DNA from: an uncultured Acidobacteriota bacterium
GTDB lineage: Bacteria > Acidobacteriota > Thermoanaerobaculia > Multivoradales > SZUA-115
Length of the DNA: 64,000 bases
Assembly: GCA_963805975.1 (NCBI GenBank)
Contig: CAWDVR010000002.1
Span: 1,056,001 to 1,120,000 of the forward strand
Reading direction: 5' to 3'
Shown here: piece by piece, positions 6,626 to 33,734 of the stretch
Numbering within the stretch: position 1 is the stretch's first letter
Layout: each line of letters begins with the position of its first letter
Program-made: the position numbers and the translations under genes
The notes under the pieces: model-generated
What the model saw: only the letters and a program-made list of their open reading frames with translations
The model's database searches: none
What the model was told of the DNA's origin: nothing

Positions 6626-6666
6626 GCGCGGCCCGAACCGTAACCGCCGTCTAGCCCGGGGAGACC

Positions 6667-8466: not shown

Positions 8467-8475
8467 GGCCAGGCC

Positions 8476-9066: not shown

Positions 9067-9096
9067 ACAGCGGGCAAGCACGTAGGAGCCGTCGCC

Positions 9097-9394
9097 ATGG
9101 ACCACCACGCTGACCTCGACCGCCACGTCAAGACCTACATCCTCGTCTTCGTGACCCTGCTGGTTCTGACGATCGTCACTGTCGCCGTGGCGCGGCTGCA
9201 CCTGCCCGTCGCCGGCGCGGTGGCGGTGGCGCTGATCGTGGCCTCGATCAAGGGCGACGCTGGTCGCCGGCTTCTTCATGCACCTCCTCCACGAGCGCAA
9301 GCTCATCTACTGGGTGCTCGGGTTCACCGTGGCCTTCTTCCTCGCAGTGCTGCTGATGCCACTCTGGACGCACTTCGATCCGATCACCAATTGA
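9097..9394 (+). CDS. coxD: Haem-copper oxidase subunit IV (one extra G near 9252)
   Basis: YILVFVTLLVLTIVTV..IVASIK continues after the frameshift as ATLVAGFFMHL; three TM helices. Confidence 0.8.
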
Positions 9395-9404
9395 GGGGCT
9401 TCCC

Positions 9405-9602
9405 ATGAACCTCAAGAGCTTCCACGTCGTCTTCATCGTCTGCGCGATCGCCCTCGCCTACCTGCTCGGCGCCTGGGTCCTCCAGAGCCCGGCGCTCACC
9501 GGGGCGCCGCGGCTCGCGGCCGCGGCCGGTGCGTTCGGCGCGGGCCTGGCGCTGGTCGCCTACGGGGCTTGGTTCCTGCGCTATTCCCGGAGACGAGGAT
9601 GA
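9405..9602 (+). CDS. Small 2-TM membrane protein
   Basis: MNLKSFHVVFI..., two hydrophobic helices and a basic C-terminus; tightly packed in the operon. Confidence 0.65.
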   Translation: MNLKSFHVVFIVCAIALAYLLGAWVLQSPALTGAPRLAAAAGAFGAGLALVAYGAWFLRYSRRRG

Positions 9603-9886
9603 GCGGGCGGCTGCGCCCGCTGGCGCTCCCTGCCGGCGCGCTGCTGGCCGCTGCGCTCTGGGCGGTGCCGGCGATCGCGTGCACCGTGTGCTACGGCGCT
9701 GACGCCAACGCCTCGCCGCTCCTCACCGCCGCAAGGCTGGGGGTCTTCCTGCTCCTCGGGATCACCGTCGCGTTGCTCGGCGGCTTCGCGAGATTCTTCT
9801 TCTATCTGCGCAACCGTGCCCGGCAAGTCGAGAGCGAGAGCATCGCCGCGGAGTGGGCGCAACTGCAACGGAGTGCCTCGTCATGA
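9599..9886 (+). CDS. Small membrane protein with an exported CxxC (ACTVCYG)
   Basis: ATGA overlaps at both ends; signal-like segment, then CTVC, then a TM helix. Confidence 0.65.
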   Translation: MSGRLRPLALPAGALLAAALWAVPAIACTVCYGADANASPLLTAARLGVFLLLGITVALLGGFARFFFYLRNRARQVESESIAAEWAQLQRSASS

Positions 9887-10683
9887 CCAGTTGGCTACCC
9901 CCGATCGCCTCGGAGCACGGCCCCCAGATCGACAGCGCCCTCACCTGGGTTCACTGGCTGATGCTGGTGCTCTTCGTCGGCTGGATCATCTTCTTCGTCG
10001 TCGCCCTCTGGCGGTTCCGGCGCTCGGCGAACCCGGTGGCGAGCTATACCGGCGCCACCAGCCACGCCTCGAGCTGGCTCGAAGGCGGGGTGGCGGTGGC
10101 CGAGGCCATCCTCCTGATCGGGCTCTCGATCCCGCTCTGGGCGGACCGCGTGGCCGAGTTCCCGCCGGAGAGCGAGTCCGTGGTGGTGCGCGTGGTGGGC
10201 GAGCAGTTCGCCTGGAACGTGCACTACCCCGGCCCTGACGGCACGTTCGGCCGCACGGCGATCGACAAGATCGACGTCCAGAGCAATCCCCTGGGCCTCG
10301 ACCGGACCGACCTCGCGGCCCAGGACGACGTCACGACGGTGAACCAGCTCTACCTGCCGGTGGGTAAGCCGGTGATCGTCCACTTGAGCAGCAAGGACGT
10401 CATCCACAGCTTCGGCCTCCCGGAGATGCGCATCAAGCAGGACGCCGTGCCGGGCATCGTCATCCCGGTCTGGTGGAAGCCCACCGTCACCACCGCCGAG
10501 ATGCGCCAGCGCCTGGGCAAGCCCGAGTTCGTCTACGAGATCGCCTGCGCCCAGCTCTGCGGTATCAGCCACGCCAGCATGCGAGGCTTCGTCACCATCC
10601 AGGAGCCGGCCGAGTTCCAGGCCTGGATGGACGAGCAAGTGGCGGCCCAAGCCTCGACCGGGGAAGACGCGATCTGGGAGTAG
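9883..10683 (+). CDS. coxB: Haem-copper oxidase subunit II (CuA), no fused cytochrome c
   Basis: Two TM helices, GEQFAWNVHYPG, SKDVIHSF, KQDAVPG, CuA motif CAQLCGISHASM. Confidence 0.92.
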   Translation: MTSWLPPIASEHGPQIDSALTWVHWLMLVLFVGWIIFFVVALWRFRRSANPVASYTGATSHASSWLEGGVAVAEAILLIGLSIPLWADRVAEFPPESESVVVRVVGEQFAWNVHYPGPDGTFGRTAIDKIDVQSNPLGLDRTDLAAQDDVTTVNQLYLPVGKPVIVHLSSKDVIHSFGLPEMRIKQDAVPGIVIPVWWKPTVTTAEMRQRLGKPEFVYEIACAQLCGISHASMRGFVTIQEPAEFQAWMDEQVAAQASTGEDAIWE

Positions 10684-11889: not shown

Positions 11890-13215
11890 TCACCCCGCCC
11901 CAAAAACCTTCGGCGTCGGCATCCGCGCACGGATCTCTTCCAACACGGTGGCGGTCACCAGGTCCACGCCGTTCTTCGCGCACCATCCCTCGACGGCCCG
12001 CGTCACCATGCCGCGCACGAAGGCCGGGATGCGCTGCATGCGCTCGCGGGCGTCGGGCTCCCAGGTGAGGGTGATGCTCGCGGCCTGGCCGTACTCGACG
12101 GCGGCGGGTCGCAGGCGGTCCACTGCCGCCTGGAGGGTGCCTGGCTGGTGGGTACAGAGGGGATCCTCGGCCATCAAATCGCCGGTCATGCCGTAGGCTC
12201 GTGCCCGGCAGCCGCCGCACAGGCTCTTGAGCTCGCAGGGCCCGCAGCGCCCGCCGAGGTGCTCGCGCTGGCGGATGCGGGTGAAGAGCTCGGAGCTGTC
12301 CCACAGCTCGCGCAGGCCCGTGTCTCCCAGGTTGCCGGCGAAGAGGGGCAGATAGGGGCAGGGCGTGACGTCGCCGTTGGGCCGTATCCCTAAGTAGTGG
12401 GTGCCGGCCGGGCAGCCTCCGGCGCCGCCGCCGAAGCTCTTCGGAAAGGGTGCCGGCGAGTCCGACGACAGCAGCGTGCGGACGAAGTGCGGCGCGCACT
12501 TGGCGTTGACCAGCATCTTCGAGGACCAGCGCCGCTGGATCTCGGCCAGCTCCCCCAGCACCTGGTCGTACTCGGCGGGATCGAGGTCGCTGACGAAGGA
12601 ACCCCGGCCGCTCGGCACCAGGAAGTAGAGGTTCCACACCTTGGCGCCAAGCTCTTCGTGGGCGAAGGCGGCGAGCGCCTCGAGCTCGTTGCGGTTGTGC
12701 GCGCCCACCGTGGTCTGCACGATGAACGGCAGGCCGGCGCGGGTGAGGATCTTCGCGCCCTCGACCGTGTTCTGCCAGGCGCCGCGCACGCGGCGGAAGG
12801 TGTCGTGGCGCTCCGGGTCGAGCGCGTCGAGCGACAGCGCAAGGCCGCGCACGCCTTCGGCCAGGAGGATCTGCGCCAGGTTCTCGGTGATCTTGACGCC
12901 GTTGGTGCCGACCACGACCCAAAGATTCTGCTGCACGCCGTAGCGGATGATCTCGACGATGTCGCGACGCAGCAGAGGCTCGCCGCCGGTCAGGATGGTC
13001 ACGCACTCGGGAGCGAAGGCGGCGATCTCGTCGATCACCCGGTAGCACTGCTCGGTCGAGAGCTCACTGCGGTCGGCGAACGCCGGGCTCTTGACCTTGC
13101 CGGGGCCGGCGTCCAGATAGCAGTGCTCACAGGCGAGGTTACAGCGGTAGGTGAGGTTCCACGACACCACGTAGGGCCGCTCGAACCCGCCCGCGCTCCC
13201 GACGAGATCGGCCAC
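11890..13215 (-). CDS. Radical SAM/SPASM protein (AhbD/NirJ-like) with a C-terminal PCP_red-like domain
   Basis: WNLTYRCNLACEHCY, LTGGEPLLR, SPASM Cys set CPAG..PC..CGPC..CGGCRA..EDPLC; tail WEPDARERMQRIPAFVRGMVTRAVE. Confidence 0.88.
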   Translation of the reverse strand: MADLVGSAGGFERPYVVSWNLTYRCNLACEHCYLDAGPGKVKSPAFADRSELSTEQCYRVIDEIAAFAPECVTILTGGEPLLRRDIVEIIRYGVQQNLWVVVGTNGVKITENLAQILLAEGVRGLALSLDALDPERHDTFRRVRGAWQNTVEGAKILTRAGLPFIVQTTVGAHNRNELEALAAFAHEELGAKVWNLYFLVPSGRGSFVSDLDPAEYDQVLGELAEIQRRWSSKMLVNAKCAPHFVRTLLSSDSPAPFPKSFGGGAGGCPAGTHYLGIRPNGDVTPCPYLPLFAGNLGDTGLRELWDSSELFTRIRQREHLGGRCGPCELKSLCGGCRARAYGMTGDLMAEDPLCTHQPGTLQAAVDRLRPAAVEYGQAASITLTWEPDARERMQRIPAFVRGMVTRAVEGWCAKNGVDLVTATVLEEIRARMPTPKVFGAG

Positions 13216-13218
13216 GGG

Positions 13219-13692
13219 TCACATCCCGAACCGCGTGCGGGCCGCGGAGAGGACGGCTTCGTCGATCAACGCGTGACCCTCTTCCCGCGCCACCATCTCG
13301 ATCCCGGCGCGGGCCATGGGCCGCACCATCTCCGGGATGGCCTCGAGCCGCGCCAGCGCACCGGCCGTCCACTCGGGGCCGCTCGGGACAACCATGGCTT
13401 GCGCCTCGGACGGCTGCGTGGTGCCGCCGAGCATGGCCGAGAAGGGACACCTGCCGGCAGGGGCCTCCGCAGGCACTGCCGCCATCCCCGGGTTGGCGAT
13501 CGCCGCCGCCGCGGCCGGGCCGATGCGGACCCCCAGGGAGCGCACCATGTCGGTCTCGTGCTTGTTGGTCAGCATCGCCATCTCGTAGCCGCAGGCCGGG
13601 CAGCTATAGACCACGGCCAGCGAGCCCGGCTCGCTCTCCTCGGTGGCGCGGAGCCGCATCGGCGTGTCGCAGGGAACGCAGAGAAATTTCAT
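13219..13692 (-). CDS. Zn-ribbon + CP motif + PCP_red-like domain protein
   Basis: CVPC...CPAC, GRCPF, WTAGALARLEAIPEMVRPMARAGIEMVAREEG. Confidence 0.8.
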   Translation of the reverse strand: MKFLCVPCDTPMRLRATEESEPGSLAVVYSCPACGYEMAMLTNKHETDMVRSLGVRIGPAAAAAIANPGMAAVPAEAPAGRCPFSAMLGGTTQPSEAQAMVVPSGPEWTAGALARLEAIPEMVRPMARAGIEMVAREEGHALIDEAVLSAARTRFGM

Positions 13693-16909: not shown

Positions 16910-16930
16910 TAATTACGCAGTGCGTAACTA
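16910..16930. promoter_or_regulatory. Palindromic operator upstream of padR
   Basis: TAA-TTACGCA-G-TGCGTAA-CTA. Confidence 0.6.
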
Positions 16931-17845
16931 TTCCGAAAGAGTATTTGCCGGGAGGCGACTTGTCAAAACCTGGTCTTCGGATGGCTCACCGAGGCACTCG
17001 AGCAAAGCTCGCGACACGGTTGCCAGCGCGACTAAGGTCGGGCTTGCCTCGGTGATCGGCAGCCCCTGGTCGGAGAGCGCTGCGAGCTGCGGATCGAAGG
17101 GCACGCGGCCCAGGCAGGGCAGGGCGATCTGCTCCGCTCCTTCGGCAACGGGAAAGAGCGGGCGCACCGTGCCGCAGCCGGCGCAGGCGTAGCCGCTCAT
17201 GTTCTCGATGTAGCCGAGCAGGCGGTTCGGCAGCGGCGAGAGCGCATCGACCGAGCGAGCCACCACGCCCCGCGCCAGGGCGGAAGGGATCGAGACCAGC
17301 ACCACCGCGGCGTCGGGACCGAGGAAGTCCGCGAACTGGGCGGTGCGCTCCGGGCCCGGCGGCAGGTCCACCAGCAGCAGGTCGAGCGGGCCCCAGTGGA
17401 TCGCCGCCAGCAGCTCCGCCAGCTTGGCGAACTCGCGGGTGGCGCGCCAGACGTGCGAGTGCCGGGGCGACGCGCTGGGCCAGGAGAGCGCCTCGCCGTC
17501 GGCCAGCAGGCTCCCCACCGAGAGGATCTTCAGGCCGTCGCGGCTCACCGGCAGCAGCAGGCCCTCCTCGCCGGGCAGCGGCGGCACGTCTGCGACGCCG
17601 CCCAGCAAAGCCTGGCTGGGGCCGTTCACGTCGGCGTCCAGGATGCCCACCTTCCGGCCTCGCGCCGCCAGCACGGCACCGAGCTGCCGGGTGAGCGTGC
17701 TCTTGCCGACCCCGCCCTTGCCCGACCCCACCGCCACCACGTGGCGGATGCCGGACATGCGCCGGGCGATGGCCGCCTCCAGCTCGGCGACCTGTTCCGC
17801 AACGCCCGAGCCGCCGTCGCCTGCGATCTGCGAGTACGTGCGCAT
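16928..17845 (-). CDS. Mrp/NBP35 (ApbC-like) P-loop ATPase, Fe-S carrier family
   Basis: GSGKGGVGKST, LDADVNGPS, DLPPG, IENMSGYACAGCG. Confidence 0.88.
   Translation of the reverse strand: MRTYSQIAGDGGSGVAEQVAELEAAIARRMSGIRHVVAVGSGKGGVGKSTLTRQLGAVLAARGRKVGILDADVNGPSQALLGGVADVPPLPGEEGLLLPVSRDGLKILSVGSLLADGEALSWPSASPRHSHVWRATREFAKLAELLAAIHWGPLDLLLVDLPPGPERTAQFADFLGPDAAVVLVSIPSALARGVVARSVDALSPLPNRLLGYIENMSGYACAGCGTVRPLFPVAEGAEQIALPCLGRVPFDPQLAALSDQGLPITEASPTLVALATVSRALLECLGEPSEDQVLTSRLPANTLSE
16938..16966 (-). promoter_or_regulatory. Sigma70-type promoter for padR-ADOP, embedded in the 3' end of the mrp gene
   Basis: Minus strand TTGACA (16961-16966), N17, TACTCT (16938-16943). Confidence 0.6.
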
Positions 17846-19405: not shown

Positions 19406-21597
19406 TTACCCGCCTTCCAGCTCCGGATGCGGTCCGGCCCGGCGGGCCTGGAGGGCCGAGGGCGAGCCCACCTCGTTGATCGGCGGCTTGCGGTCGGCGG
19501 ACGGTGCCTCGGGAGCGGGCGCTGCATGGCTCGCGTCCGCCGGAGGTGCTGCCTCGTGGCCGGGTGCGCCATTGCCGCTCGCATGGGGCGCGCCGGCGGA
19601 GACCACGTCGGTGCTCACGCCTTTCGCCGCCGCCTGGTTCTTGAGCATCTCTTCCATCATCTGCCGGCCGATGGCGATGCCCTCCTCGACCAGCGCCAGA
19701 TTGATGGCATCACGGCCGCGCTCGGCTGCCAGGGCCTCGATGCGGTCCTGGGTGCGGTTGCGCATGAAGCCTGCCGGCACGCGCAGGATGCGCTCCACGG
19801 CCTCGCCGTGCCAGGTGAAGGCGGAGAGCAGCGGCACGTGCTTGGCGTCGCGCGCGATGAGGCGCTTCTCGCCCGTCCGGAGCCTCCGGCCCGTGGGCCG
19901 GTGCCGCGTGCCCGTTGGCCGTGCCGTTGGGAGCCATCTCCTCGGCGCTTCTTCCATCGATGCCGTGGTCGGCGCGTCGCCCGCGGCGGCGATGCCGTCG
20001 CCCAAGGGCACGCCGGTCTCCTCTTCGACCACTTGCTGCGCCAGCTCGAGCGTGATGGTCGGGAGCTTGCGCAGCCGCGCCGTCTTCTCGATGCGCGCCT
20101 TGGCCCGCCGGCGCTTGTAGGCGTCCTTCAGGGTCCACAGCGCGCGGCGCGCGCTCTCGCTCCACTTGAGCTTGCGGCCGTCGTAGGTGACCTCTTCGGT
20201 GAGGGCGCCCTCGGCGCGCGCGATGCGGTCCAGCGTCTCGCGGTCGATGCGCTCGAGGTCGCCGCTGCCGCAGACCCCGCAGCGCACCGCGTCCGGCTCG
20301 CTCGCCGCCACACCGCAGCTCTTGCAGATCGCCACCGGCTGGCGCTCGGCGAGCTCGAGCGCCATGCGCTCGGCGAGCTGGAAGGTCACGTCCCGCGCCT
20401 GCTTGGGCATGAAGCGGTCCATCGCCTCGTCGATCACCGAGTTGGTGACCACGCTGTGGCCCTTCTCGAGCGCCAGGCGCAGGATGCCGGTGCGCGCGAT
20501 GCCCTTGACCTGCGGCGGCACGCGCAGCATGCGCTCCTCGGCCTCGGGCGTCCACTTGATGCTCTCCTCGGCACGCACGTCGATGTCCGGGTAGGCGAGG
20601 CGGGTCGAGAGCAGCACGTCGCAGGGGCAGCGGCGGAGCAGGTTCTCGGTGTTGCTGCCCAGGCCGGTCTCTTCCGCCGGGCTGTGGACGCCGATGCGGC
20701 CGACGACCACCAGCCATGGGTTGGTCTTGCGCACGTGGTCGAGGATCTTCTGGAACGCCTTGCCGTCGAGCAGCGTCTTGGTCACCACCGTGCCGGCGTC
20801 GAGCGCCATGCGCTCGGCGACGTCCAGGTGCGACTGGTAGATCTGCGCCAGGCCGGTGTCGATGATCTCCTCGTGGAGCTGGTTCTGCTCCTCGAAGCGG
20901 AAGACCTTGGAGGCCTTCTCGGAGAGCACGCCGACGATGCCGTGGAAGACCGAGTAGTGAAGGTACGGGTCGTAGACGCCGATGATCTCGACCTTCTTCG
21001 TCGAAGCGCTCGGCGAGCCCGAGCGCCGTCTGGAGCGCTCCGAACGACTGCGGGCTGCCGTCGATGCCCACCAGGATGGTGTCGCCCTCGGGCTCGTCCT
21101 TCTTGGGCAGGTGCTTGACCACCCAGACGTCGCGGTTGGAGGTCCGCGCCACGCGATCGCAGACCGAGCCGATCTCGCTGTCCTTGACCCGGCCGATGCC
21201 GAGCGCGCCCGATCACCACCAGGTCGTAGTCGGCGCTCTCGATGTCCCGCACCAGCTCGGTGTGGTGCTTGCCGTCCATCATCCGCGGCTCGAAGGCCAG
21301 CCCGTTGTCCCGGCAGAGGTTCTCCATCTGGTCGAGGTAGCTCTCGGAGATCAGCTTCAGGCCGAGGGTGATCAGGCTGTCGTGGATCTTGCGCTGGCGC
21401 TCGAGCTCGACCTCGTCGAGGTACTCCTCGGGGAGCGTGTACTCCATCTGCTTGAAGCGGTAGTCGTGCATGCGGGCGGCGTAGACGTGGCAACCCACCA
21501 GCGAGGAGCCGAACGCCTTGCCGAGCGCGACGCTGTTGGCGATCGCCCGGTTCGAGAAGTCGGAGTTGTCGACCGGGACGTAGATCTTGCTATACAT
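19406..21597 (-). CDS. Tandem universal stress protein (USP-USP) fused to three PCP_red-like domains and a Zn ribbon (frameshifts near 21205 and 21000)
   Basis: MYSKIYVPVDNSDFS, TILVGIDGSPQS, LGSNTENLLRRCPCDVLL; WTPEAEERMLRVP, CKSC..CGVC, WSESARRAL, WHGEAVERILRVP. Confidence 0.82.
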
Positions 21598-23315
21598 GTG
21601 CTTGGACCTCTCCGTTGTCCTGGTTGCCCTGCCCGCCGGCAAGCTCTCGAGAGTTCCGGCGCCGCACCCACAGCGACCAGCAGGATCTCGACCGCCAGCA
21701 CCGCCACGGCGGCCCGCAGCATCGGCCAGACCGGCGACGGGGTCTCTCGCGGCATGGTGTACAAATACATCCACTGCGTCAAGCCCCGCTTGTTGCCGCG
21801 CTCGCGCTGGTGCCGTCCCAGAGCGAGAAGGCGACGGGAACGTACTGCCCCTCGGCGAAGGTCACGCTGCCGCTGCCGCGTAGCGCACGCTTCAGGATCA
21901 CCGACCACTCGCCGCGGTCGTAGCTCGCCACCGCCGCTCACGTCCTCGCCCTCGATCACGGTCAGATTGTCGCTTCCCGCGCCAGCGTAGCGTTGCACCA
22001 CCTTCGTCGCCAGGTCCACGAACCAGAGGTCGACCGGGTTCTGCGCGTCGCCGAACAGGAAATAGGGCTTGCGGATACCGCTCGGAAGCTGGGCCGGGAG
22101 CTGGATCGCGACCGCGTCGGAGAACTCGGTCTCGGGGCTGGTGGCCGCGGTGCCGCCGCCCTCGTCGCCCCAGAAATCGCCACCGGCGCCGTCCGCGGCC
22201 GGGGCTGCGTCCGCACCCCAGAAGTCCCCACCTTCGGCAGCGGCGGCCGCGGGCGCGGCTTCGTCACCCCAGAAGCCGCCCTCGCCTGCTGCCGGCGCGG
22301 CGGCGGCCTCGGCCTGGTCCTCCTCGGGCGGAACCACCAGGTCGGGCGCGTTGCGGCCCGCGACGTCGGCCCGCATGTCGTGCCAGGTGAGCAGGAAGGC
22401 GATCTCCCTGGCGTTGTAGACCGCTCGTACGGTGATGCCGTTGGCCGACGGATGGAACGCGCGGCCCGGCTCGGTGATCTGGCCGACGACCGGGAAGTAG
22501 GCCGGCGGCGCGGTGGCGAACGTTTCCTCGCCGCGCTCGAGGTCGATCTCGTCGGCCGTCCACTGGACCTGCAGCAGCTCGGAGTACGAGGGCGCATCGC
22601 GGGGATCGAGCGAGACGATGAAGTCCACCAGCTGCCAGCGCTGCTCGTCGGTGAGCGACTCGGCGAAGGACGGCATGGGCGTGCCGTTCATCCCGGTGGT
22701 GAAGGTGCGGTAGATGTCCTCGCGGGTCGGGCCGCCACGGTAGGTCCAGCGCTTGGTGAGGTCGGCAGGCCGGATCGAATGGTCCCAGTCGTCCTTCAAC
22801 GTGGGCGCCGAGGTGCCGTCGCCGCGCCCGAGCTCGCCATGGCAGGCCCCGCAGCCGATCTCGACGTAGACCTGCTTGCCTTTCTCGGCCGACTCCGTCG
22901 AGAACGACGGCGCCTTCGGGATGGTGAGCGCCGTGGGCTTGCGCTCCGGGTTCGCGAAGTCCGGCGAGAAGGACTTGACGGCGGCGATGAGCTGGTTGAT
23001 CTGCTCCTCGGAGAGGTGCTTCCAGCCCGGCATCGAGGTGTAGGGCATGCCCTCGCGCAGGATGTGCTGCAGGTCCTCGTCGGTGGGGAGCGCGCCGCTC
23101 GGCGTGTGCCGGACCTTGAACTTGGCCGAAGTGAAGTCGCGCGGGCGCGGCACCAGCCGCGGCGCCGCGATCCCTTGGCCGTCGCCCTGCTCGCCGTGGC
23201 ACTGGGAGCAGAGCTTCTGGTAGAGCTCTCCGCCGGGCGGGTTGTCCTGGGCAGAGGCCCCCGGCACCAGGAGCAAGGCGAACCCGAGAGCCGCCGCGAA
23301 CCGCACCCCCGTCAC
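21590..23315 (-). CDS. Exported dihaem cytochrome c with an EB_dh/DOMON-like haem-b domain and C-terminal TM anchor (frameshifts at ~21670-21930; 3' end approximate)
   Basis: Signal peptide, CSQCH..PRPRDFT..SMPGW, CGACH..GTPMPSF, then VRAVYNAREIAFLLTWHD, FSDAVAIQLP, PYFLFGD..PVDLW. Confidence 0.8.
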
Positions 23316-24136
23316 TCGTGCACCTCCTCGCGCGCCCGCGGCTGCTGCTCCGAGAAATCGTAGAGGAACAGGATCACGTCCCACATCTCTTCCTCGGTGA
23401 GGAACTTCTCCCACGCCGGCATGGCGGTGTCCCAGGGGCCGGCCTCCTCGGGCAGGCCGGGGCCGCCCTTGCCGATGCGCCAGAAGAGGAAGGACTCCTG
23501 CAGCAGCGCGATGGCGCCGCCATCCGCGAAGTTGGTGGGGATCGGGTTCAGGCCGTGCGCGAACATCCCGTCGCCCCGCATCGCGTCGCCGTGGCAGTAG
23601 AAGCAGTTCTGGTAGTAGACCCGCCGGCCGTTGGCCAGGTGGCCGGCGAAGGCGGTCGGGTCGCTCTGCTCGAGCGGGCGGTAGGGATTGTCGAGCTTCA
23701 CCAGGTCGAACTGCTTGTCGTGCACCGTGATCGAGTCGGGCGGCGCGGGGTGGATCGTGCGGCCGAAAGCCGGCGCCTCGAGCTTGACGTTCATGCGCCG
23801 GTAGACCCCGAACGCCACCAGCGCCGGGATCAGCAGGACGACCGCGTAGAGCAGCGGGCGCCGCCGGGGCTCGAGGCACAGGCGCACCAGCGGCCCGGTG
23901 AACGCCTGCAGCCGCTCGCGGCTGGAGGTGACGTAGGCCACGGTCGCCAGGGTGACGATGCCCATGTAGAGCGAGATCACCGACTGCGGCACCGGGACCT
24001 TGAACCCGAAGCGCAGGAAGACCCAGACCGAGAACCAGGTCACCACGGTCCACAGGAACGAGCCGGCGCGGCGCTGGCGCAGCAGGAACTGCACGGCAAG
24101 GAGCGGCAGCACCACCCAGAGGACGATCGGGTTCAT
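23312..24136 (-). CDS. Membrane-anchored monohaem cytochrome c
   Basis: 3-4 N-terminal TM helices, YYQNCFYCHG, LFWRIGKGG, TAMPAW. Confidence 0.88.
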   Translation of the reverse strand: MNPIVLWVVLPLLAVQFLLRQRRAGSFLWTVVTWFSVWVFLRFGFKVPVPQSVISLYMGIVTLATVAYVTSSRERLQAFTGPLVRLCLEPRRRPLLYAVVLLIPALVAFGVYRRMNVKLEAPAFGRTIHPAPPDSITVHDKQFDLVKLDNPYRPLEQSDPTAFAGHLANGRRVYYQNCFYCHGDAMRGDGMFAHGLNPIPTNFADGGAIALLQESFLFWRIGKGGPGLPEEAGPWDTAMPAWEKFLTEEEMWDVILFLYDFSEQQPRAREEVHE

Positions 24137-24180
24137 CGCATCATGTCCTTTGCCGGTCCCTCATCTCAGTGGCCCCTCTC

Positions 24181-24753
24181 TCAGTGGCTGGGGACCGGGG
24201 CGGGTGCCTCGGCGCCAGCCTCACCGCCGGCCGGGGCCGCCGCGGGGGCGCCCGCCGCCACACCGGCGCCGCCGGCCTGCCAGGGCAGCTTGGTCTCCAG
24301 AGTGACCGTGGTGGTCCCGCCGAGGCTCTGCAGGTAGGCGATGACGGCGAGGATCTCGTCGTCGGTCAAGCCGATCGGCGGCTTGCTGATCGCTGGCATG
24401 CCGGGGTTGAAGCCCGGCACGATGAACTTGTCCGGCTCGTAGAGCGACTGCGCCAGGTACTCGACGTCGGAGAGGCCGGCGATCCGGGTCGCGGCGCGGG
24501 CGCCGATGCCCTCGAGGTCCGGGAAGCGCAGCGCTCCCGACTTGCCCACCGTGTGGCAGGTGAAGCACAGGCCCTTGCCGTCCATGATCTCGCGGCCGAC
24601 CTTGAGCATCTGCTCCGGCGTCATGTCCTTGCTGAGCACCACCTCCGCGGGCGGATGCACTTCCTTCTGCGGCACCAACTGGCCGACATACGTGTAGAAG
24701 CCGGTCGTGGCGACCGTCAGCGCGGCGATGCGCAGGCTCACGGGGACCTTCAC
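24181..24753 (-). CDS. Monohaem cytochrome c with an N-terminal anchor
   Basis: GKGLCFTCH, YLAQSLYEP..IVPGF..GMP. Confidence 0.88.
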   Translation of the reverse strand: MKVPVSLRIAALTVATTGFYTYVGQLVPQKEVHPPAEVVLSKDMTPEQMLKVGREIMDGKGLCFTCHTVGKSGALRFPDLEGIGARAATRIAGLSDVEYLAQSLYEPDKFIVPGFNPGMPAISKPPIGLTDDEILAVIAYLQSLGGTTTVTLETKLPWQAGGAGVAAGAPAAAPAGGEAGAEAPAPVPSH

Positions 24754-26632
24754 GCGACCGCTCCCAGGTCCGTGGAGCTCGGCCCAGGGGGCTCGCCGGG
24801 GGAGGAGAGCTCACCTTGGGCTCCCAGTCCTTCTTGCCGCCCAGGCTGGCGAGCCAGAACACGAAGCCGATCAGCAGGAAGAAGATCAGCACGGTCACCG
24901 AGACCACCTGGGTGGCAAAGCCCAGCGTGGGGGTGAAGGCGTCCACCGAGGTGTCGCGGATGACGCCGTAGACGTGCCAGTGCTGGCGCAGGCCCGAGCG
25001 CACGTAGCCCATCAGCCCCATCAGCCAGGTGAAGGTGACGGCGATGAAGATCAGCACGTACTGGGAGATGGGCGCGATCTGGCCCCAGCGCGGCTCGCCG
25101 GCCTTCTTGGCGTTCCTGAACATGAAGACGTCGATCACCGTCACCGCCACCATGGCGAAGAGCACCGACAGCACCTGCGGCACCGAGAACGCGATGCGCA
25201 CGGAAGCCTCGACGAAGTAGCCGTAGACACCGAGGAAGATCACGAACGCCGCGACGCCGACGAAGATGCCGAGCTGCGCGCGGTTGCCCGCCTTCGCCCA
25301 GGGGACGATCGGGGTCTTACCGCTGCGGCGATAGAGCAGGAAGCTCACGAAGGTGGTGAGGATCAGGATGTTGACCGCGGTGTTCTTGGCCGACATGACG
25401 CCCAGGAATTGCAGGGCGGGGTGGGCGGAGCCGCCCATCGCCCGAATCTCGGACACGGTCGAGATGATCGAGCGCGGCGTCGCCCAGACCGCGAAGCAGA
25501 GCGCCACCAGGATCAGCAGGTACTTGATGTACTTCTGGAACTTCTCGGCGCCGGCGATCCGCCCCATCCCCAGCCACAGGTAGTAGTTGGCGCCGAGGAA
25601 GAGGTTGCCGATCAGCACCGCCTGGATGATGAACAGCCAGGAGAAGGCGCCGCCCATCATGGTCAGCCCCAGCGTCTGGGAGTAGGCGTAGATCTCCTTG
25701 GCCAGGTAGTAGCCGGCGAAGGGCAGCGGCAGGAAGGCGCAGATCGCCACGAAGTTGCCGATGTAGCCCATCCAGTCGTAGTGGGCGCGCTCCTCGTCGG
25801 TCTTCGCCCCCAGGAACTTGAAGGCGGCGTAGGCCGCGGCCACCGAGCCGCCGAAGGCGACGTTGGCGATGATGCGGTGGACGTTGATCGGCATCCAGGT
25901 GTAGTTGCGCACCGCGTCCCAGGTGCTGATCAGCGCGCCGGTCTCGGAGATCCCCGACGGCGAGGTCATGAAGGTGAGCCAGGCGTTGGCGATCAGCATG
26001 ATCGCCGTGCCGACCACGTTCAGGCCCACTCCCAGGAGCAGGTGGACGCGGGGCGAGAACTTCCCCCAGCCGTAGTAGTAGGTGTAGAGGAAGAAGGCCT
26101 CGAAGAAGAACAGCCCGACGTAGGGCAGGAAGGTAGGCGAGAAGACGCTCACCAGGTAGGTGGTGAACTTCGGGTAGAGGATGATCAGCCCGAAGGTCAG
26201 CATCGCCCCGAACGTCGCGGTGAGCGAGAACGACACCGAGAGCAGCTTGGTGAACTCGTGCGCCAGGCGGTCGTAGCGCGGGTCCTTGGTGCGGTAGCCG
26301 ATGAACTCGATGATCAGCGCGAACATCGGCACGGCCAGCACGAAGGCGGCGAAGAGCAGGTGGAGCTGGGCCGCGATCCAGACCGCGACCCGGCTGCCGA
26401 TCCTGGGGAAGGCGCGGTACTCGGCGTCGACGTAGGGCTTCTCCCGGTCCTTCTGCTCCTGCTCGGCGTGCTGGTCGGCGAGCCCCTCGTCGCGCGGGGT
26501 CTCGACGACCTCGCCGCCCGGGGTGCTGGTGGGGGCCCGGTACTCCCGCTTGAGGAGCAGGGTCGAGACGCCGACGATCATCGCCAGCCCGAGGAGCGCG
26601 ACCAGGCCGGCGGCGAGACCCTTCTTCATCAT
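24750..26632 (-). CDS. Cytochrome bd subunit I (CydA)-like oxidoreductase of the Nitrospira 'bd-like'/OR-N type; stop at 24750 needs one indel near 24790-24830
   Basis: QLHLLFAAFVLAVP, FFFEAFFLYTY, IANAWLTFMTSP, NVHRIIAN, MGYVRSGLRQHWHVYG; ~13 TM helices; GTGA overlap with the next gene. Confidence 0.82.
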
Positions 26633-27300
26633 GGCGTCACCTGCTGCGGTGCAGCCGGGGTGGTCTCTGCCGGGACCGCGGGGGCCGGGGCGGCCGGGTT
26701 GGGAGCGACCTGGGGCGGCATGGTCCCGCCGGAGCGCTCGACGCGCCGCTGCTGGAGCGCACGCAGGTGCACGATGATCGCCCAGCGGTCCGCGACGGGG
26801 ATCGGGTAGCGGTACGCGGGCATCAGGCCGAAGCCGTTGGTGATGGTGTCGAAGAGCTGGCCGTCGGGCATCTGGCGCAGCCGGTCGTCGTGGAACGACG
26901 GGGTCGGCACCTTGCCGCGCTCGAAGAGGATGCCCTTGCCGTCGCCGTTCTTGTCGTGGCAGACCGCGCAGTAGATGTCGTAGCGCCGCGCACCGCGCTC
27001 GCGCACCGTCTCGTCCACCGCCATCGGCACCGCCATGACGAACGTGCCGGCGGCGTCCTTGCCCGTCCAGTAGGGGCCGTCGTCCCGCAGCTCGCCGCGC
27101 GCCACGGTGCCGGGAACCGGCGGCCGCATCGCCTTGCCGTCGTAGAAGAAGGCGCTCGCCGCCTGGGGCTCGTAGCGCGGCTGCACGTCCATGTTGGGAT
27201 TCATATGGATCGGCGGCCGGCTGGAGGTGCAGCCGCGGGCGCACCCGGAGAGGGCGAGGAGGACGAGACCCAGGGCCAGGTGCTGGCTGCGCCGGCTCAC
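26629..27300 (-). CDS. actE: ACIII monohaem lipoprotein ActE, copy 1
   Basis: Lipobox [46 protein letters not shown]. Confidence 0.9.
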
Positions 27301-27304: not shown

Positions 27305-30300
27305 CTAAGCCTCCACCAGCTCGGGATGGGGGTTGCGGATGCGCGCCAGGTAGCTGGTGCGCGGCCTGTTGCCGAGCTCGGCCAGCAGCACGTAGTTGCG
27401 GCTGCTCTGCTTGCGCGCGCTCACCTGGGCTTGCGGGTCGCGGATGTCGCCGAAGACGATCGCCTGCGTCGGGCAGGTCTGCTGGCAGGCGGTCTGCACG
27501 TCGCCGTCGGCCAGCGGGCGCTCGGCCATCTTGGCGTCGACCCGGGCGCGCTGGATGCGCTGCACGCAGTAGGTGCACTTCTCCATCACGCCGCGCGAGC
27601 GCACGGTGACGTCCGGGTTGGCCGCCAGCTTGAGCAGCTCGGGCGTGTCCTTGGTGTAGTTGAAGAAGTTGAACCGCCGCACCTTGTACGGGCAGTTGTT
27701 CGAGCAGTAGCGGGTGCCGATGCAACGGTTGTAGACCATCGCGTTCGAGCCCGTCGGCGGTGTGCACGGTCGCCGCCACCGGGCAGACCTGCTCGCAGGG
27801 GGCGTTCTCGCACTGCTGGCAGGGCATCGGCTGGAACACCATCTCCGGCGTCTCGGGCGGGCCGGAGAAGTAGCGATCGAGGCGCAGCCAGTGCATCTCG
27901 CGGCCGCGGCGCACCTGCTCGTGGCCGACGATGGGGACGTTGTTCTCGCTCTGGCAGGCGACGACACAGGCGTTGCAGCCGGTGCAGGAGTTGAGGTCGA
28001 TCGCTCATGCCCCACTGCGGGCCTTCGTCGTACCGGTGCTCGGCCCAGAGCGGCCCGCTCTTCGGGATCTCCACCATCTCGTCCGCGAAGTGCGGCTCGT
28101 GGCGCCATTCCTCGAGGGTGGCCTCGCGCACCACCGGCCGCCCCTCCATGCTGCCGTGATCCTGGGTCTGGGCGATGCGGTGCCGGTTGCCGGAGGCCTC
28201 GAGCGCCGCGCCGGAGACGAAGCCGAGCGCCGTGCTCGTGCGCAGCGGATAGACGTTGGCGCCGACCCCGCTGCCTACCCGGCCGGCCGCGGCCGCCCGT
28301 AGCCGAGGTGCACGACGACGGTCTCCTCGGCCTGGCCGGGCACGATCCACACCGGCAGCTCGACCTCGGCCTCGCCCAACCGCAGGCGGGCGCCGTCCTC
28401 GTTGGCCAGCCCCAGGCGCTCGGCGGTCTTCGGGGCGAGGAGAGCGGCGTTGCCCCAGGTCAGCTTGGTCACGGCATCCGGCAGCTCCTGCAGCCAGCCG
28501 ACGTTGGCGAAGCGCCCGTCGTGCACCGCCGGCGAGGCCCTGAACGACAGCTCGAGGCCCGCGGCAGCCGCGCCGGCCAGCCCTGCGGCAGCCTCGGCCG
28601 GCAGCGCCGCCACAGGCAGCGAAACGGGAGCCGGCGCACTCCCTGGCAGGAGACCGTCGTGGAGCACCTTGTTGAAGGCGTTGTCGAAGGCGGTCGCGGG
28701 CCCGGAGACCGGCAGCAGCGTCCTCCAGGTCTCCCGCACGAGATCGTACGCCGTCTTCTCTTCGCCGCTCGCCAGGAGGCCCAGCACCTCGATGGCGCCG
28801 TGGCCGCCGAACAGCGGCTCGATCAGCGGCTGCACCACGCTCACGGTGCCGTCCGCCGCCCTGCAGTCGCCCCAGGCTTCCAGGAAATGGGCCTCGGGAA
28901 GGTGCCAGTCGGCGCGCGCCGCGGTCTCGTCCGCCGCCAGCCCGAGGTGGACGACGTTCTCCACCTGCTCCAGGGCCGACTCGAAGGCGAGGTCCGCGGG
29001 CGCGTCGTAGACCGGGTTCCCGCCCAGGACGACCAGGGTCGAGACCTGGTTGGCGCGCAAGGCGGTCACCAGGGCCGAAAGCTCCGCGGTGCTGGGAGCC
29101 AGCACGTCGACCGGCTCGCGCAGCAGGACCGTCGTCCCCACGTTGCCGAGCGCGGCGTTGATCGCCAGCGCCAGAGCGTGCACCGAGGGTGGCTGATGGC
29201 GGCCCGCGATCACCAGGCTCGCCCCCCGGTTCGCCACCAGGTCCTTGGCCATGACTGCGACCCAGCGCATCGCTTGATCCGAGGCGGCCTCGGCGCCCGT
29301 GACGGGCAGCGCGAGCGGCACGCCGGCCGCGGCGAGCGCCCGGCCCAGCGCCAGCGCGAAGCTGCCGATCTGCCCGGCGGGCAGGGCCAGGCGGTGGTCG
29401 GCCATCGCTCCGGTCGTGGTGTGGGCGCTCTCGACCACCCACAGCCGGTTCATCGCGTCCTCTTCCGAGGCGAGCCGGCGGCCCGCGGCAAAGCCGCGAG
29501 CGTGGGCCACGGCGTTGCTCTCGGCCAGGAACAGGTCGGCATCCAGGCTCACCACCACCCGCGCCGCGCCGAGATCGTAGGTGGCCTTGAGCGGCCGTCC
29601 GGCCAGCAGCGCCGCGCCGGCGAGCGCGTTCTCGTCGCTGACCGGCTCCCAGGTGGCAGCGCGCATCAGGGGAAAGCGCTGGCGCAAGGCCGCGAACAGC
29701 CGGTACAGCGTGGGGGACGACGAAGGCGTGGCGAGCACCGCCAGCCCGGCGCCGCCGCTCGCAACGAAGCCGGCCTCGAGCGCCTTCCAGGCGGCTACGA
29801 ACTCGGCCCAGCTCTTGCGTATGGCGCCCGCGGCGGCAGTCGTTTGCAGCACGTGCTGCGAGCGGTCCGGATCGTAGAGGCCCAGGATCGAGGCCTGCAT
29901 CTGGGCGCTGGCGCTGCCGGCGGTTCCCGGATGGAGCTCGTTGCCCTCGATCTTGGTCGGCCGACCCTCGTGGCTCTCGACCAGCAGGCCGTAGCCCTCG
30001 ATGCCGAAGGGCATGGTCGTGGCGTAGCGTCTCGGGATGCCCGGCACCGTCTCTTCGGGGGGCGCCACGAAAGGCACGATGTTCTCGACCGGCCGACGGC
30101 AACCGGCGAGCCCGGCGAGCGACAGGGAAGCCCCCAGGAGCTGCACCAGCGACCGGCGATCGATGCCCTCCGGCAGCTCCGACGCGCCCTCGGGGAACTC
30201 GCGCTCGAGGAAAGCCCGTGACTCCGGGCTGTCGGCCAGTTGCTCGAGGCTGCGCCAGTGCTCCCGCTCGCGCCGCCGCGGTTCCCCGCCGCCCCCACAG

Positions 30301-30383
30301 CCGCAGGCCGAGCCGCAGCCGCCGGAGGCCGAGCCCGGCTCACCGCCGGCGAGCTCTTCCGTGGGCTCGATCACCGGTGGCAC
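27305..30383 (-). CDS. actB: ACIII ActB (non-catalytic molybdopterin-fold domain + Fe-S domain), copy 1; frameshifts near 28285, 28005 and 27750
   Basis: HWRSLEQL, Tat-like [33 protein letters not shown]; [41 protein letters not shown]. Confidence 0.9.
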
Positions 30384-31018
30384 CCCGTGCAGTCGAGAGG
30401 CGGTTGCAGGCCCTTGGCCTCCTTGATGAGGGCCGCGGATTGGAGTTGGTCGCGGGGCGGGCTCCAGTCCATGTTCGTCACCTCGTCAGCGGGTCGCAGG
30501 TAGGGGTCGGGGTTGCGGTGACAGTCCAGGCACCAGCTCATGGAGAGCGGCTCGGCCTGCGCCACCTCGTCCATCTGGTCGATGCGCCCGTGACAGGTGG
30601 CGCAGCCGACCCCGGCGCGCAGGTGGGGCCGGTGGTCGAAGAACGCGAAGCCGGGCAGGTTGTGCACCCGCACCCAGCGGATCGGGCGCCCGCTGGTGGC
30701 GCTGTCGCGCACCACCGCCAGCGTCGCGGCATCGCGCTTCACCACGCGGTGGCAGTTCATGCACACCTCGGTCGGCGGCACCACCGCGACCGGCGCGCGG
30801 TCCACCGTGGCGTGGCAGTAGAGGCAGTCGATCCCGAGGTCCCCGGCGTGGAGCTTGTGGCTGTAGGCGACCGGTTGCACCGGCTGGTAGCCGACGTCGG
30901 TGTAGCGCGGGGAGAAGAAGTACCAGACCCCGGCCACCGCCAGGCCACCGACGACGACGCTCGCCGCGGCGATGCGCAGCGGCAATTCGTTGGCCCAGCG
31001 CGGGAAGATCTGCGCCAC
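30371..31018 (-). CDS. actA: ACIII pentahaem cytochrome ActA, copy 1
   Basis: One TM helix, QPVAYSHKLH, five CxxCH (CLYCH, CMNCH, CATCH, CLDCH, CTGCH). Confidence 0.93.
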   Translation of the reverse strand: MAQIFPRWANELPLRIAAASVVVGGLAVAGVWYFFSPRYTDVGYQPVQPVAYSHKLHAGDLGIDCLYCHATVDRAPVAVVPPTEVCMNCHRVVKRDAATLAVVRDSATSGRPIRWVRVHNLPGFAFFDHRPHLRAGVGCATCHGRIDQMDEVAQAEPLSMSWCLDCHRNPDPYLRPADEVTNMDWSPPRDQLQSAALIKEAKGLQPPLDCTGCHR

Positions 31019-31216: not shown

Positions 31217-32308
31217 GTGGTTGCTTCCCTCCTCGATCCGCAGCCTGCTCCCATGAAAGACCGCCCCGGCCTGCTGCTGGTGAACCTCGGAACGCCGGAT
31301 GCTCCGCGTCCGCGCGAGGTGCGGCGCTATCTGCGCGAGTTCCTGTCCGACCCTCGCGTGATGGACGTTCCGGCGCTCACGCGTTTTCTCGTGCTCGAGC
31401 TCCTCATCCTGCCGCGCCGGCCGCGCGCCTCGGCCGCGGCCTACGCCAGGATCTGGGGCCCCGAGGGCTCACCGCTCCTCGTGCATGGCCGCGCACTGAC
31501 GGAGAAGGTCCAGGCGCGCCTGGGGGACGCCGTGCAGGTGGAGCTCGCGATGCGCTACGGCAACCCCTCGATCGCCAGCGCGCTCGACCGCTTCGAACGA
31601 GCCGGGGTGAGCCGCCTGGTCGTCTTCCCGCTCTATCCGCAGTACAGCTCCGCCGCCACCGGCTCCACGATCGAGCACGTGCTGCGGCTCGCGGGAGGGC
31701 GCTGGAACACGCCCTACCTCCAGGTCGTGCCGCCGTTCTACGACCACCCCGCCTACCTGGAAGCTCGCGCCGAGGTAGCGCGGCCATTTCTCGCGCCGCT
31801 GCCCGAGCGCGTCTTCATGAGCTTCCACGGCCTGCCCGAGCGCCAGATTCGGAAGAGCGATCCCACCGGTGGCCATTGCCTGGCACGCCCCGACTGCTGT
31901 GCCGAGGTCGGGGCGAGGAACCGCTCCTGCTATCGCGCGCAGTGCCACGCCGCGGCACGATTGCTGGCGGGGCGGCTCGCGATCCCCGCGGAGCGCGTCG
32001 TCGTCTGCTTCCAGTCCCGCCTGGGGCGCACGCCGTGGCTCACCCCGCAGACCGACGAGGTGCTGGCAGCCGAGGCCCGACGGGGCGTGCGTAGGGCCGT
32101 GATCATCCCGGCGTTCGTGGCCGACTGCCTGGAGACCCTCGAGGAATTGAGCATCCGCGGCGCCGAGATCTGGCGTGAGAACGGCGGCGAAACGTTGACC
32201 GTGGTGCCGGCGGTCAATGCCGGCGACCGCTTCGCCGAGGCGGTGATCGAGATCGCCGCCGAAAGCTCGACCTGGCTCGAGGCGGCGAGCGGAGCCTCGG
32301 CCTCCTGA
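31217..32308 (+). CDS. hemH: Ferrochelatase (protoporphyrin-type N-terminus); alternative start 31253
   Basis: LLVNLGTPD, YLREFLSDPRV, LYPQYS, SFHGLP, FQSRLG, FVADCLETLEEL. Confidence 0.95.
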   Translation: MVASLLDPQPAPMKDRPGLLLVNLGTPDAPRPREVRRYLREFLSDPRVMDVPALTRFLVLELLILPRRPRASAAAYARIWGPEGSPLLVHGRALTEKVQARLGDAVQVELAMRYGNPSIASALDRFERAGVSRLVVFPLYPQYSSAATGSTIEHVLRLAGGRWNTPYLQVVPPFYDHPAYLEARAEVARPFLAPLPERVFMSFHGLPERQIRKSDPTGGHCLARPDCCAEVGARNRSCYRAQCHAAARLLAGRLAIPAERVVVCFQSRLGRTPWLTPQTDEVLAAEARRGVRRAVIIPAFVADCLETLEELSIRGAEIWRENGGETLTVVPAVNAGDRFAEAVIEIAAESSTWLEAASGASAS

Positions 32309-32310
32309 CC

Positions 32311-33734
32311 ATGCCGCCGCGGGTGGCGATCGTGGGTGCAGGGATCGGTGGTCTCGCCGCCGCCCATCATCTGAGCTTCCTGGCTGCGGAGCGCGGCTGT
32401 GCGATCGAGATCGTGCTCCTCGAGGCGTCCGGGAGGCCGGGAGGAGCGCTGGCGACCGAGCTTGTCGAGGGTGCGCTCCTCGAGCGCGGCCCGGACACGC
32501 TGGTGACGCACAAGCCGGCGGGCCTCGCCCTCTGCGAGCGGCTGGGCCTGGGCGAGCGCATCGTCTTCCCGCCGCCGGGTCGCATCGACATTCTCGACCG
32601 TGGTCGCCTCCTGCCCGTGCCGGCGGGTTTTGCGCTGCTCGCTCCAACGCGCGCTCGGCCGCTCCTGTCGTCGCCGCTCCTGTCCTGGCGGGGCAGGCTG
32701 CGCGGCGTGCTCGAGCCTCTGGTGCCGGCCAGAGCCGACCTCGGTGACGAGAGCGTCGCCTCGTTCGTGCGCCGCAGGTTCGGCGCCGAGGTCTACGAGC
32801 GGCTCTCCGAGCCGATGGCGGGCGGGCTGTTCATGGCCGATACCGAAGAGCTGAGCCTCGCGGCCGGCTTCCCCCGCTTCGCCAGCCTCGAACGCGAACG
32901 CGGCCGGCTTCTCGGCGGATGGCGGGCGCCCGCAGTCTCCAGGGCCCACCGCCGCGACCCTCGCCGGCGGCCTCGGCCAGATCGTGGACGCCCTGGTCGA
33001 GCGGCTGCCGCCGGGCTCCCTGCGCCTGGGCCAGGCGGTACAAGGGCTCGTCCGGCAGCCCCGAGGCTTCGTGCTGAAGATGGCCGAGGGTCCCGCGCTC
33101 GCCGCGGAAGCGGTGCTGGTCGCCATCCCGGCGCACGCGGCGGCGCCGCTCTTTTCCGAGCTGGACCCGCAGCTCGCCGGCGAGCTGGCCCGGATCTCCT
33201 ACGCCTCCTGCGTGACGGTGAACCTCGCATGGCCTCGGCAGGCCGTGAAACGCCTGCCCCAAGGCCACGGCTTTTTCGTTCCCCGCACCGCGGGCCTGCC
33301 GGTGGTGGCGGCGAGCTTCGTGAGCGTCAAGTTCCCCGAGCGGGTGCCGGTGGACCAGATCGTGGTCCGGGTGTTCCTCGGGCGGAGCGCTTCACCCGGA
33401 GGTCTCCGGCCGCTCGGACGCCGAGCTGGTCGAGGCCTCGACGAGCACCCTCGCGCCGCTCCTCGGGTTGCGGGAGCCGCCTTCCTGGAGCCGCGTCTGG
33501 CGCCACCCGCTGTCGATGCCACAGCGGGTCGTGGGGCATCCGGCGCTCGTGGCGCGCGTCACCGCGCGGCTGGATGCACATCCCGGCCTCGAATTCGCGG
33601 GCGGCCCGCTCGGCGCCTACGGCCTGCCCGATTCGATCGCCGCGGGCGAGGCGGCGGCGGAGCGCCTGCTCGACTGGGTCGCGGCTCGCAGCCGGGGCGC
33701 AACCTTCCGAGATTCCCGGATAGTGCCGTCATGA
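32311..33734 (+). CDS. hemY: HemY-type protoporphyrinogen oxidase (frameshifts near 32950 and 33385)
   Basis: IVGAGIGGLAAA, ERGPD, DESVASFVRRRFG, SVKFPER, MPQ..VGH, GLPDSI. Confidence 0.85.

Follow-up and report, generated by a model that had tools for sequence, protein, structure and literature searches.

Gene organization around the oxidase gene

We analyzed a 64,000-nucleotide stretch of DNA from an uncultured bacterium (the window; positions 1,056,001 to 1,120,000 of contig CAWDVR010000002.1, assembly GCA_963805975.1), with a focus on a gene for a bd-like, CydA-like protein (24750..26632, minus strand, 3' end at ~24750). This protein has ~625 residues and 14 predicted membrane helices. 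Its gene lies in a minus-strand run of eight genes without sizeable gaps, which begins with one half of an alternative complex III (ACIII). The first of these genes, actA (30371..31018), encodes a pentahaem cytochrome c with five CxxCH motifs, 39% identical to the ActA of a complete ACIII in the same window. In actB (27305..30374), a molybdopterin-oxidoreductase-like subunit (B1) is fused to an Fe-S subunit (B2) and carries the TIGR04519 TAT-variant motif. The product of the third gene, actE (26629..27300), is a monohaem cytochrome c that has an LSGC motif of the lipoprotein type and shares 40% identity with the ActE of that complete ACIII. Downstream of the CydA-like gene are cytc1 (24181..24753), for a membrane-anchored monohaem cytochrome c with ~35% identity to the gene that follows the Nitrospira counterpart; cytc2 (23312..24136), for a multi-helix membrane monohaem cytochrome c; a gene for a dihaem cytochrome c fused to an EB_dh/alt-NxrC-like domain (21590..23315, 3' end at ~21590); and a gene for a USP-USP-zinc-ribbon-PCP_red protein (19406..21596). 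We place the upstream limit of this gene unit at actA (31018) and its downstream limit at a set of maturation-type genes. A scan for promoters and terminators found nothing above chance.

The host is a soil-type acidobacterium. Its nearest proteins are 88-91% identical and are labelled Thermoanaerobaculia or Acidobacteria by their sources, in agreement with an earlier reading of this DNA made without database searches (the sequence-only reading), which had proposed a probable acidobacterium. That reading had also described two monohaem cytochromes and then a dihaem-c/EB_dh protein after the CydA-like gene, and this is the order found.

Four genes of the run contain frame changes: actB has three (near 28290, 28005 and 27745), the CydA-like gene one within its last ~20 codons, the dihaem cytochrome gene three (near 21935, 21810 and 21665) and the USP gene two. 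These are likely assembly indels, because homologues are mostly intact; among loci with at least 80% coverage, a single frame was found for ActB in 40 of 52, for the dihaem cytochrome in 57 of 67 and for the USP protein in 49 of 54. A fusion of the CydA-like protein to a cytochrome c in the window was considered and rejected; the frame change near the 3' end of the gene accounts for the apparent read-through, and close homologues are 616-631 residues long.

Classification of the CydA-like protein

Only residues 80-317 match the Pfam family Cyt_bd_oxida_I. Residue equivalences come from a profile alignment (probability 99.8) with 19 quinol-oxidizing (qOR) sequences, E. coli CydA among them. In this alignment H91 (QLH) corresponds to E. 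coli H19, E178 (FFFE) to E107 and H252 (NVHR) to H186, so the equivalents named by the sequence-only reading stand at the motifs it gave. The position of E99, the first proton-channel glutamate, is taken by Y171; the same tyrosine is found in both Nitrospira paralogues, and therefore does not set the acidobacterial protein apart from its relatives. No glutamate aligns to E445. Where canonical CydA has the motif GWxxxExGRQPW, residues 542-553 read GYVRSGLRQHWH, with WLMGLMGYVRSGLRQHWH replacing the part that holds E445. The Q-loop of the quinol site is also absent: the region after helix VI is a membrane helix in the structural model, there is no KLAAxE motif, and K252 and E257 are missing. That is, the protein combines the first four CydA helices and the His19 equivalent with the loss of the quinol site, as is characteristic of OR-N proteins.

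The AF2 model (m9d4f0a5493b6; pLDDT 87, pTM 0.83) contains 14 long helices, including an N-terminal one. It matches CydA structures with Z scores of 32-35 and ActF and ActC with Z scores of 20-23 over 313-319 aligned residues; unrelated helical bundles score below 8. According to Murali et al. (bioRxiv 2021.01.16.426971), OR-N1 and OR-N2 proteins have 14 helices, and OR-N2 often lacks a partner CydA.

In a quick tree of 73 rows, computed without bootstrap, the protein falls inside the OR-N clade (SH-aLRT 96) and the 19 qOR rows are separate (100); forks within the OR-N clade are poorly resolved. The closest named relative is a Nitrospira protein family of the NIDE0901/bd-like_2 type, with 48% identity over ~530 residues. 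Identity to the two Nitrospira paralogues is 48% and 35%, and H404, M413, the HWH motif and the gene order favor the N2 type, the N1 and N2 labels of the rows having been deduced by us. By description, we equate the 48% family with bd-like_2 of N. moscoviensis (PMC6606698) and with the NIDE0901-like OR-N2 (PMC12342949). We conclude from these sequence comparisons that the CydA-like protein is very probably of the OR-N2 type. The sequence-only reading, which had called it a Nitrospira-style OR-N protein rather than a canonical CydA, is upheld: the protein lies outside the canonical clade, and no cydB was found elsewhere in the genome.

A search for relatives matched 7971 of 7997 scored candidates; the best 120 are 81-91% identical and, where named, come from Thermoanaerobaculia or other Acidobacteriota. 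Full-length relatives occur in 36 of 401 sampled Acidobacteriota genomes (the carriers), with one OR-N copy each. Genome G023 enters only the denominators of this census and of the cox1 count among non-carriers given below.

Conserved histidines and a putative metal site

In an 81-row alignment, H91, H197, H252, H404 and H553 are at least 90% conserved; H551 is not. E178 and M413 are likewise conserved. All 79 motif-matching nearest loci and all 80 Nitrospira-type loci have the HWH motif formed around H551 and H553, but only 25 of 46 representatives of 50% clusters do. The second histidine, H553, is found in all 46 of these representatives, and the first, H551, is replaced by D in G170 and by E in G175, both acidobacterial orthologues. 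We thus rejected a 'His pair' as a strict motif. The C-terminal signature of this protein is as the sequence-only reading described it, with the glutamate lost and two histidines gained, but of these histidines only H553 is invariant. Both Nitrospira paralogues share Y171, H197 and H553 with the acidobacterial proteins; H404 and M413 are hallmarks of the N2 type and do not occur in the N1-type paralogue.

K/R-rich loops alternate along the helices of the AF2 model, and we infer from this pattern that H91, H252, H404, M413, H551 and H553 would share the periplasmic side with the CydA haems. A metal site at the conserved histidines, which the sequence-only reading had suggested for the His pair, is plausible on the basis of these residues; for the Nitrospira counterpart, a copper or metal site had been put forward before (PMC6606698 and PMC8115632, which cite Lücker 2010).

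Downstream cytochromes and maturation-type genes

The three cytochrome genes downstream of the oxidase are present in 64 of 64 related loci, and natural fusions of CydA to a cytochrome c occur among the relatives (P0121, P0123 and P0138), in some of which the fused cytochrome is cytc1. These invariant neighbors and natural fusions support feeding by cytochrome c, and the OR-N2 protein is very likely cytochrome-c-fed. The sequence-only reading had proposed an enzyme fed by cytochrome c rather than quinol. This is supported at the level of the enzyme; the electrons, however, are likely derived from quinol through the ACIII, whose actABE and actCDF genes had been missed (actABE lies directly upstream of the span that had been considered, which ended 1 kb too early).

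When the EB_dh domain is aligned with EbdC (2IVF_C), Phe and Arg stand where EbdC has Met108 and Lys201, which we take to be the haem b ligands. The Met108 position is Phe in 52 and Met in 1 of 57 motif-matching loci, and the Lys201 position is Arg in 62 of 65, whereas Nitrospira-type loci retain Met (52/52) and Lys (50/50). With these replacements the domain probably lacks haem b; it may serve as a scaffold.

The USP gene follows the oxidase in 54 of 56 loci. Further downstream are a conserved GNAT-like gene (~17850-18729), which precedes the gene for an Mrp/ApbC-like Fe-S carrier ATPase (16928..17845, minus); a gene for a small CxxC zinc-finger-like/PCP_red protein (13219..13692, minus); and a gene for a radical SAM/SPASM protein with a PCP_red-like C-terminal tail (11890..13215, minus), whose best match, below the cut-off, is the haem b synthase AhbD. 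Within 10 kb, Mrp is found in 29 of 49 loci and the radical SAM gene in 25 of 49. The tail from the USP-PCP_red gene to the AhbD-like gene (11890-21596, minus) also occurs in Calditrichia and Rhodothermales records, and PCP_red-like domains are present in three of its genes. Pairs of a PadR gene and ABC-permease genes, presumably of the ADOP type, lie at 13891-16866 (minus) and 62460-64000 (plus), and the first pair splits the otherwise contiguous segment from Mrp to the radical SAM gene.

Divergent from actA, on the plus strand, are hemH and hemY-like haem biosynthesis genes (31217..33700). No ChdC/HemQ was found in our search, and thus the AhbD-like enzyme may be nothing more than the haem b synthase and need not be a dedicated maturase. 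Together with hemA, hemL, hemH and hemY nearby and the lack of ChdC, the conserved tail may represent a set for haem b synthesis or assembly.

A probable split alternative complex III

The membrane half that is missing upstream of the oxidase, actC-actD-actF, is found ~20 kb from actABE as an orphan set at 2532..5845 (plus; actC at 2532-4049). The orphan ActC has the quinol-site residues of R. marinus (H139, S164, D169 and D253) at matching spacing, and H97, R114, R119, E122 and H247 are also matched in this membrane half (residue list from PMC8076601, Table 2). The genome thus holds all ACIII parts: a multihaem ActA, an ActB with Fe-S domain, a monohaem ActE and, in trans, an NrfD-type ActC, ActD and ActF.

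We surveyed 80 related GTDB loci, 61 of which have at least 4.7 kb of upstream sequence. In 49 of the 61, actA-actB-actE lies directly upstream of the oxidase, in no case with actC, actD or actF in between; these loci span several classes and include Binatota and deltaproteobacterial records. The other 12 lack any of actABE upstream, the run starts at the oxidase gene, and no replacement complex III was seen upstream of it. In 26 of the 36 carrier genomes actB lies next to the oxidase gene, and 25 of the 26 also contain the orphan actC (at least 70% identity). Of the remaining 10 carriers, 7 have no orphan actC, 2 have the halves joined and 1 ends at a contig boundary. The two with joined halves, G048 and G170, show the order actA-B-E-C-D-F-cox1-cox3-cox4-cox2. 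The joined copies group, each with a value of 100, with oxidase-adjacent ActB in a tree of 25 ActB rows and with orphan ActC in a tree of 11 ActC rows, and they stand apart from the canonical operon. In G311, the sole actB and sole actC matches are the split copies. This co-occurrence, the joined operons and the congruent trees of the two halves indirectly support the reading that actABE and the orphan actCDF are one ACIII paralogue, split between E and C, whose halves very probably form one complex. Each half is a dedicated orthologue, besides the complete ACIII-caa3 operon of the window.

The position of actABE might also be explained by operon shuffling, such that the split ACIII would serve the A-type oxidase beside actCDF and the OR-N module would draw on a general cytochrome c pool. 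In G048 and G170 actABE is indeed joined to actCDF-cox with the OR-N module apart, the 12 loci without actABE fit this view, and a Chloroflexus actABEG operon without actCDF shares membrane subunits (PMC9316378). Against it, the oxidase-adjacent actABE is retained in 49 of 61 loci across this taxonomic range, and Nitrospira independently has a complex III upstream of the same oxidase. We therefore consider shuffling unlikely, and the split ACIII probably feeds the OR-N2 oxidase.

A further alternative is that the OR-N2 protein is not a terminal enzyme. It could be a membrane electron hub or anchor, at which ActABE docks in place of ActC/ActF, or a device that couples the cytochromes to the quinone pool, as has been speculated for Nitrospina. 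The match of the model to the ActF and ActC folds and the presence of the oxidase where actABE would usually have actCDF as neighbors are consistent with this proposal, and an ACIII-like role was raised by Lücker 2013 (PMC3578206). It is nonetheless very unlikely: the match to the CydA fold is much stronger, a cognate ActC with an intact quinol site is present in 25 of 26 genomes, and the oxidase also occurs without actABE. Moreover, the likeness of the CydA fold to NrfD/PsrC was already noted for canonical cytochrome bd.

Other oxidases and nitrogen metabolism in the genome

With its two ACIII sets and three candidate terminal oxidases, the 64-kb window forms a respiratory supercluster. The orphan actCDF is followed at 5907..10683 (plus) by a cupredoxin-like gene and the genes of an A-type haem-copper oxidase (cox1-cox3-cox4, and cox2 without haem c). 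The cupredoxin-like/carboxypeptidase-regulatory-like gene (5907-6625, plus), whose product is secreted, is frameshifted near 6375 and is conserved between actF and cox1. Cupredoxin-like genes are also reported in the bd-like cluster of Nitrospina and anammox bacteria (PMC3578206). The cox1 gene (6667-8466, plus; LAHPEVY) encodes SIPSVALL where the other cox1 of the window has AIPSAVK, whose lysine is presumably that of the K-channel; this lysine is missing in 10 of 10 aligned cox1 orthologues, that of the window included. The cox2 product has a CAQLCG CuA-type motif. This cox1 was rejected as an exclusive partner of the OR-N gene: it is found in 35 of 36 carriers, but also in ~40 non-carriers at 70% identity or more (counted by eye). 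The complete ACIII operon (47900-60770, plus) comprises actABCDEF, SCO and a caa3-type oxidase of the YSHP type. A gene for a 1075-residue protein with six CxxCH motifs and no NCBIfam match (42857-46084, plus) adjoins the respiratory cluster.

The genome is 96% complete. It contains one cydA only and, with 0 matches, no cydB, which extends to the genome the absence of a CydB partner that the sequence-only reading had noted in the window. Among the 36 carriers, cydB is present in 9, in none of them beside the OR-N gene. No NxrA/NarG and no NirK were found above the cut-offs in the genome. TIGR03479 is above its cut-off in 0 of 36 carriers, with one partial match below it (698 bits) in G102, a distant carrier; the lack of NxrA stated in the sequence-only reading extends, at this cut-off, to all carriers. 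The molybdoenzymes of the genome resemble formate dehydrogenases, a BisC-type enzyme and NuoG and do not resemble NxrA/NarG. One gene (L006, G000:C2:810265-811542) is formate dehydrogenase alpha-like, and its catalytic position is a TGA codon in frame, which would fit selenocysteine. A genome search for porin-cytochrome genes, which the sequence-only reading had suggested, gave no MtrB match and no decahaem open reading frame; the maximum is 7 CxxCH motifs, although frameshifts could hide some.

These data bear on whether the substrate is O2 or another compound, such as NO or peroxide, reduced at a rebuilt haem-metal site. A substrate other than O2 would be in keeping with the replacement of E99 and E445, with the conservation of Y171, H197 and H553 across both Nitrospira paralogues and the acidobacterial proteins and of H404 and M413 in the N2 type, and with homologues in anammox bacteria (PMC3578206); the genome, moreover, already has two other oxidases. 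However, since NarG/NxrA and NirK were not found above the cut-offs and both COX1-family genes are A-type, there is no evident N-oxide respiration for the enzyme to serve. In addition, the neighboring genes are those of aerobic respiration and haem synthesis, and Nitrospira strains without other oxidases still respire O2 (PMC12342949). Reduction of a non-O2 substrate is thus quite improbable, and O2 seems the likely substrate; the remark in the sequence-only reading that the substrate may not be O2 gains no positive support from these data.

Proposed role of the OR-N2 module

Our favored reading of the sequence data is that the OR-N2 protein would be a cytochrome-c-fed O2 reductase supplied from quinol by the split ACIII; we assign it a probability of about 0.5. 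The gene run shared with half of an ACIII suggests that the enzyme likely takes quinol-derived electrons via cytochromes c and does not serve nitrite oxidation. In both lineages a complex III module lies upstream of the oxidase, namely the ACIII half here and a Rieske/cytochrome b module in Nitrospira-type loci, and certain cultivated Nitrospira lack any further oxygen reductase (PMC12342949), which we count in favor of O2. Quinol would be oxidized at the orphan ActC, and electrons would then pass through the Fe-S clusters of ActB and the haems of ActA and ActE. From there they would travel through the dihaem and the two monohaem cytochromes to a low-spin haem b, ligated by H252 and probably M413. 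The last step would occur at an active site around H91 and E178, which H553, H404 and Y171 would reshape, standing in for E445 and E99. The sequence, the family placement, the gene order, the co-occurrence and congruent trees of the ACIII halves and the lack of cydB and NXR are direct observations; the path of the electrons, the haem ligands, the periplasmic location of the conserved residues and O2 as substrate are all deduced.

Several observations weigh against this proposal. No OR-N protein has been assayed so far, according to PMC10839748. Because the equivalents of E445 and E99 are missing, canonical bd chemistry cannot be assumed. PMC3578206 reports homologues from anammox bacteria, which are strict anaerobes. 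The role of M413 as a haem ligand is probable from topology and conservation only. The N1-type partner of Nitrospira is missing, given the single OR-N gene of each carrier. The genome has two A-type haem-copper oxidases, one of which is co-transcribed with the orphan actCDF and would be an obvious alternative acceptor for the split ACIII. The 12 loci whose run starts at the oxidase gene count on the same side, as does G195 (C17), which has actABE beside the oxidase and no orphan actC. Finally, 11 of the 36 carriers belong to one genus, so the carrier counts are not independent trials. Regarding G195, its 420-contig assembly has no A-type cox1 and only one distant COX1-family gene.

A bolder form of the proposal, which we hold as speculative and unlikely, would make OR-N2 a stand-alone oxygen reductase on a bd scaffold, with a convergent haem-copper-like site (H553, H404, H/D/E551, and Tyr171 for Glu99) and no CydB or N1 partner. 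It would have its own radical-SAM/Mrp/USP-PCP_red maturation set and form an ACIII supercomplex from quinol to O2, whose membrane arm would be shared with a haem-copper oxidase lacking the K-channel.

Bd-like proteins of the NIDE0901 type, which have never been assayed, are presumed to be the terminal oxidase in Nitrospira and are candidates for this role in Mn oxidizers. The enzyme type, the cytochrome module and the copper idea are already in print. We found no literature account of the acidobacterial actABE-OR-N2 arrangement or of its orphan actCDF; part of it may already appear in Lücker 2010, Safarian 2016 or the supplementary material of Murali et al. The OR-N2 module is present in 36 of 401 sampled Acidobacteriota genomes without NXR or an N1 partner, in 26 of the 36 with actB next to the oxidase gene. 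This shows that the module is not bound to nitrite oxidation, and the acidobacterial context points to quinol-derived cytochrome c as electron donor. With a single subunit, the acidobacterial protein is a simpler target for expression and structure determination and comes with a short list of residues for mutation (Y171, H404, M413, H551 and H553). OR-N2 is also a branch of respiration that is currently annotated as ordinary cytochrome bd.

Comparison with known systems

The closest known system is that of Nitrospira (NIDE0901/bd-like_2, similar to Manganitrophus TO_1). Its loci have the order second bd-like gene (35%), cytochrome c, Rieske, cytochrome b, hypothetical gene, the 48% gene, cytc1 and cytc2 homologues (35% and 36% identity), alt_NxrC and a dihaem cytochrome, which fits the description of bd-like_2 in N. 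moscoviensis (PMC6606698). The two systems share the 14 helices, the lack of a Q-loop, the conserved H/E/Y/M set and HWH, as well as the two downstream cytochromes, a nearby alt_NxrC-like domain and an upstream complex III module. They differ in that the acidobacterial locus has no second, N1-type CydA, and that ActABE replaces the Rieske/cytochrome b genes. Furthermore, the acidobacterial dihaem cytochrome is fused to an EB_dh domain without the Met and Lys kept in Nitrospira, the genome has no NXR, and the locus has the USP/GNAT/Mrp/radical-SAM tail.

With canonical quinol-oxidizing cytochrome bd (E. coli CydAB), the protein shares the fold and the equivalents of H19, E107 and H186. In contrast to CydAB, it has no Q-loop or K252/E257 motif, no E445/GRQPW and a Tyr for E99, lacks a cydB partner, and contains four inserted helices and one N-terminal helix.

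As for ACIII, all elements of R. marinus ActABCDEF are found in this genome: ActA with five haems, a fused ActB, ActE, and ActC/D/F with the quinol-site residues. The respiratory actABEG of Chloroflexus, which lacks actCDF, provides a precedent for a split between ABE and CDF (PMC9316378). Unlike in these two systems, the ABE half lies here beside an OR-N2 module and the CDF half beside a separate A-type oxidase. ACIII genes directly upstream of an OR-N oxidase are also reported in Nitrospirales, where they precede the OR-N5 CydAA' genes (PMC12342949); as described there, that case comprises actABCDE, including actC, and an OR-N5 pair, whereas the acidobacterial locus combines actABE only with a single 14-helix gene of the OR-N2 type.

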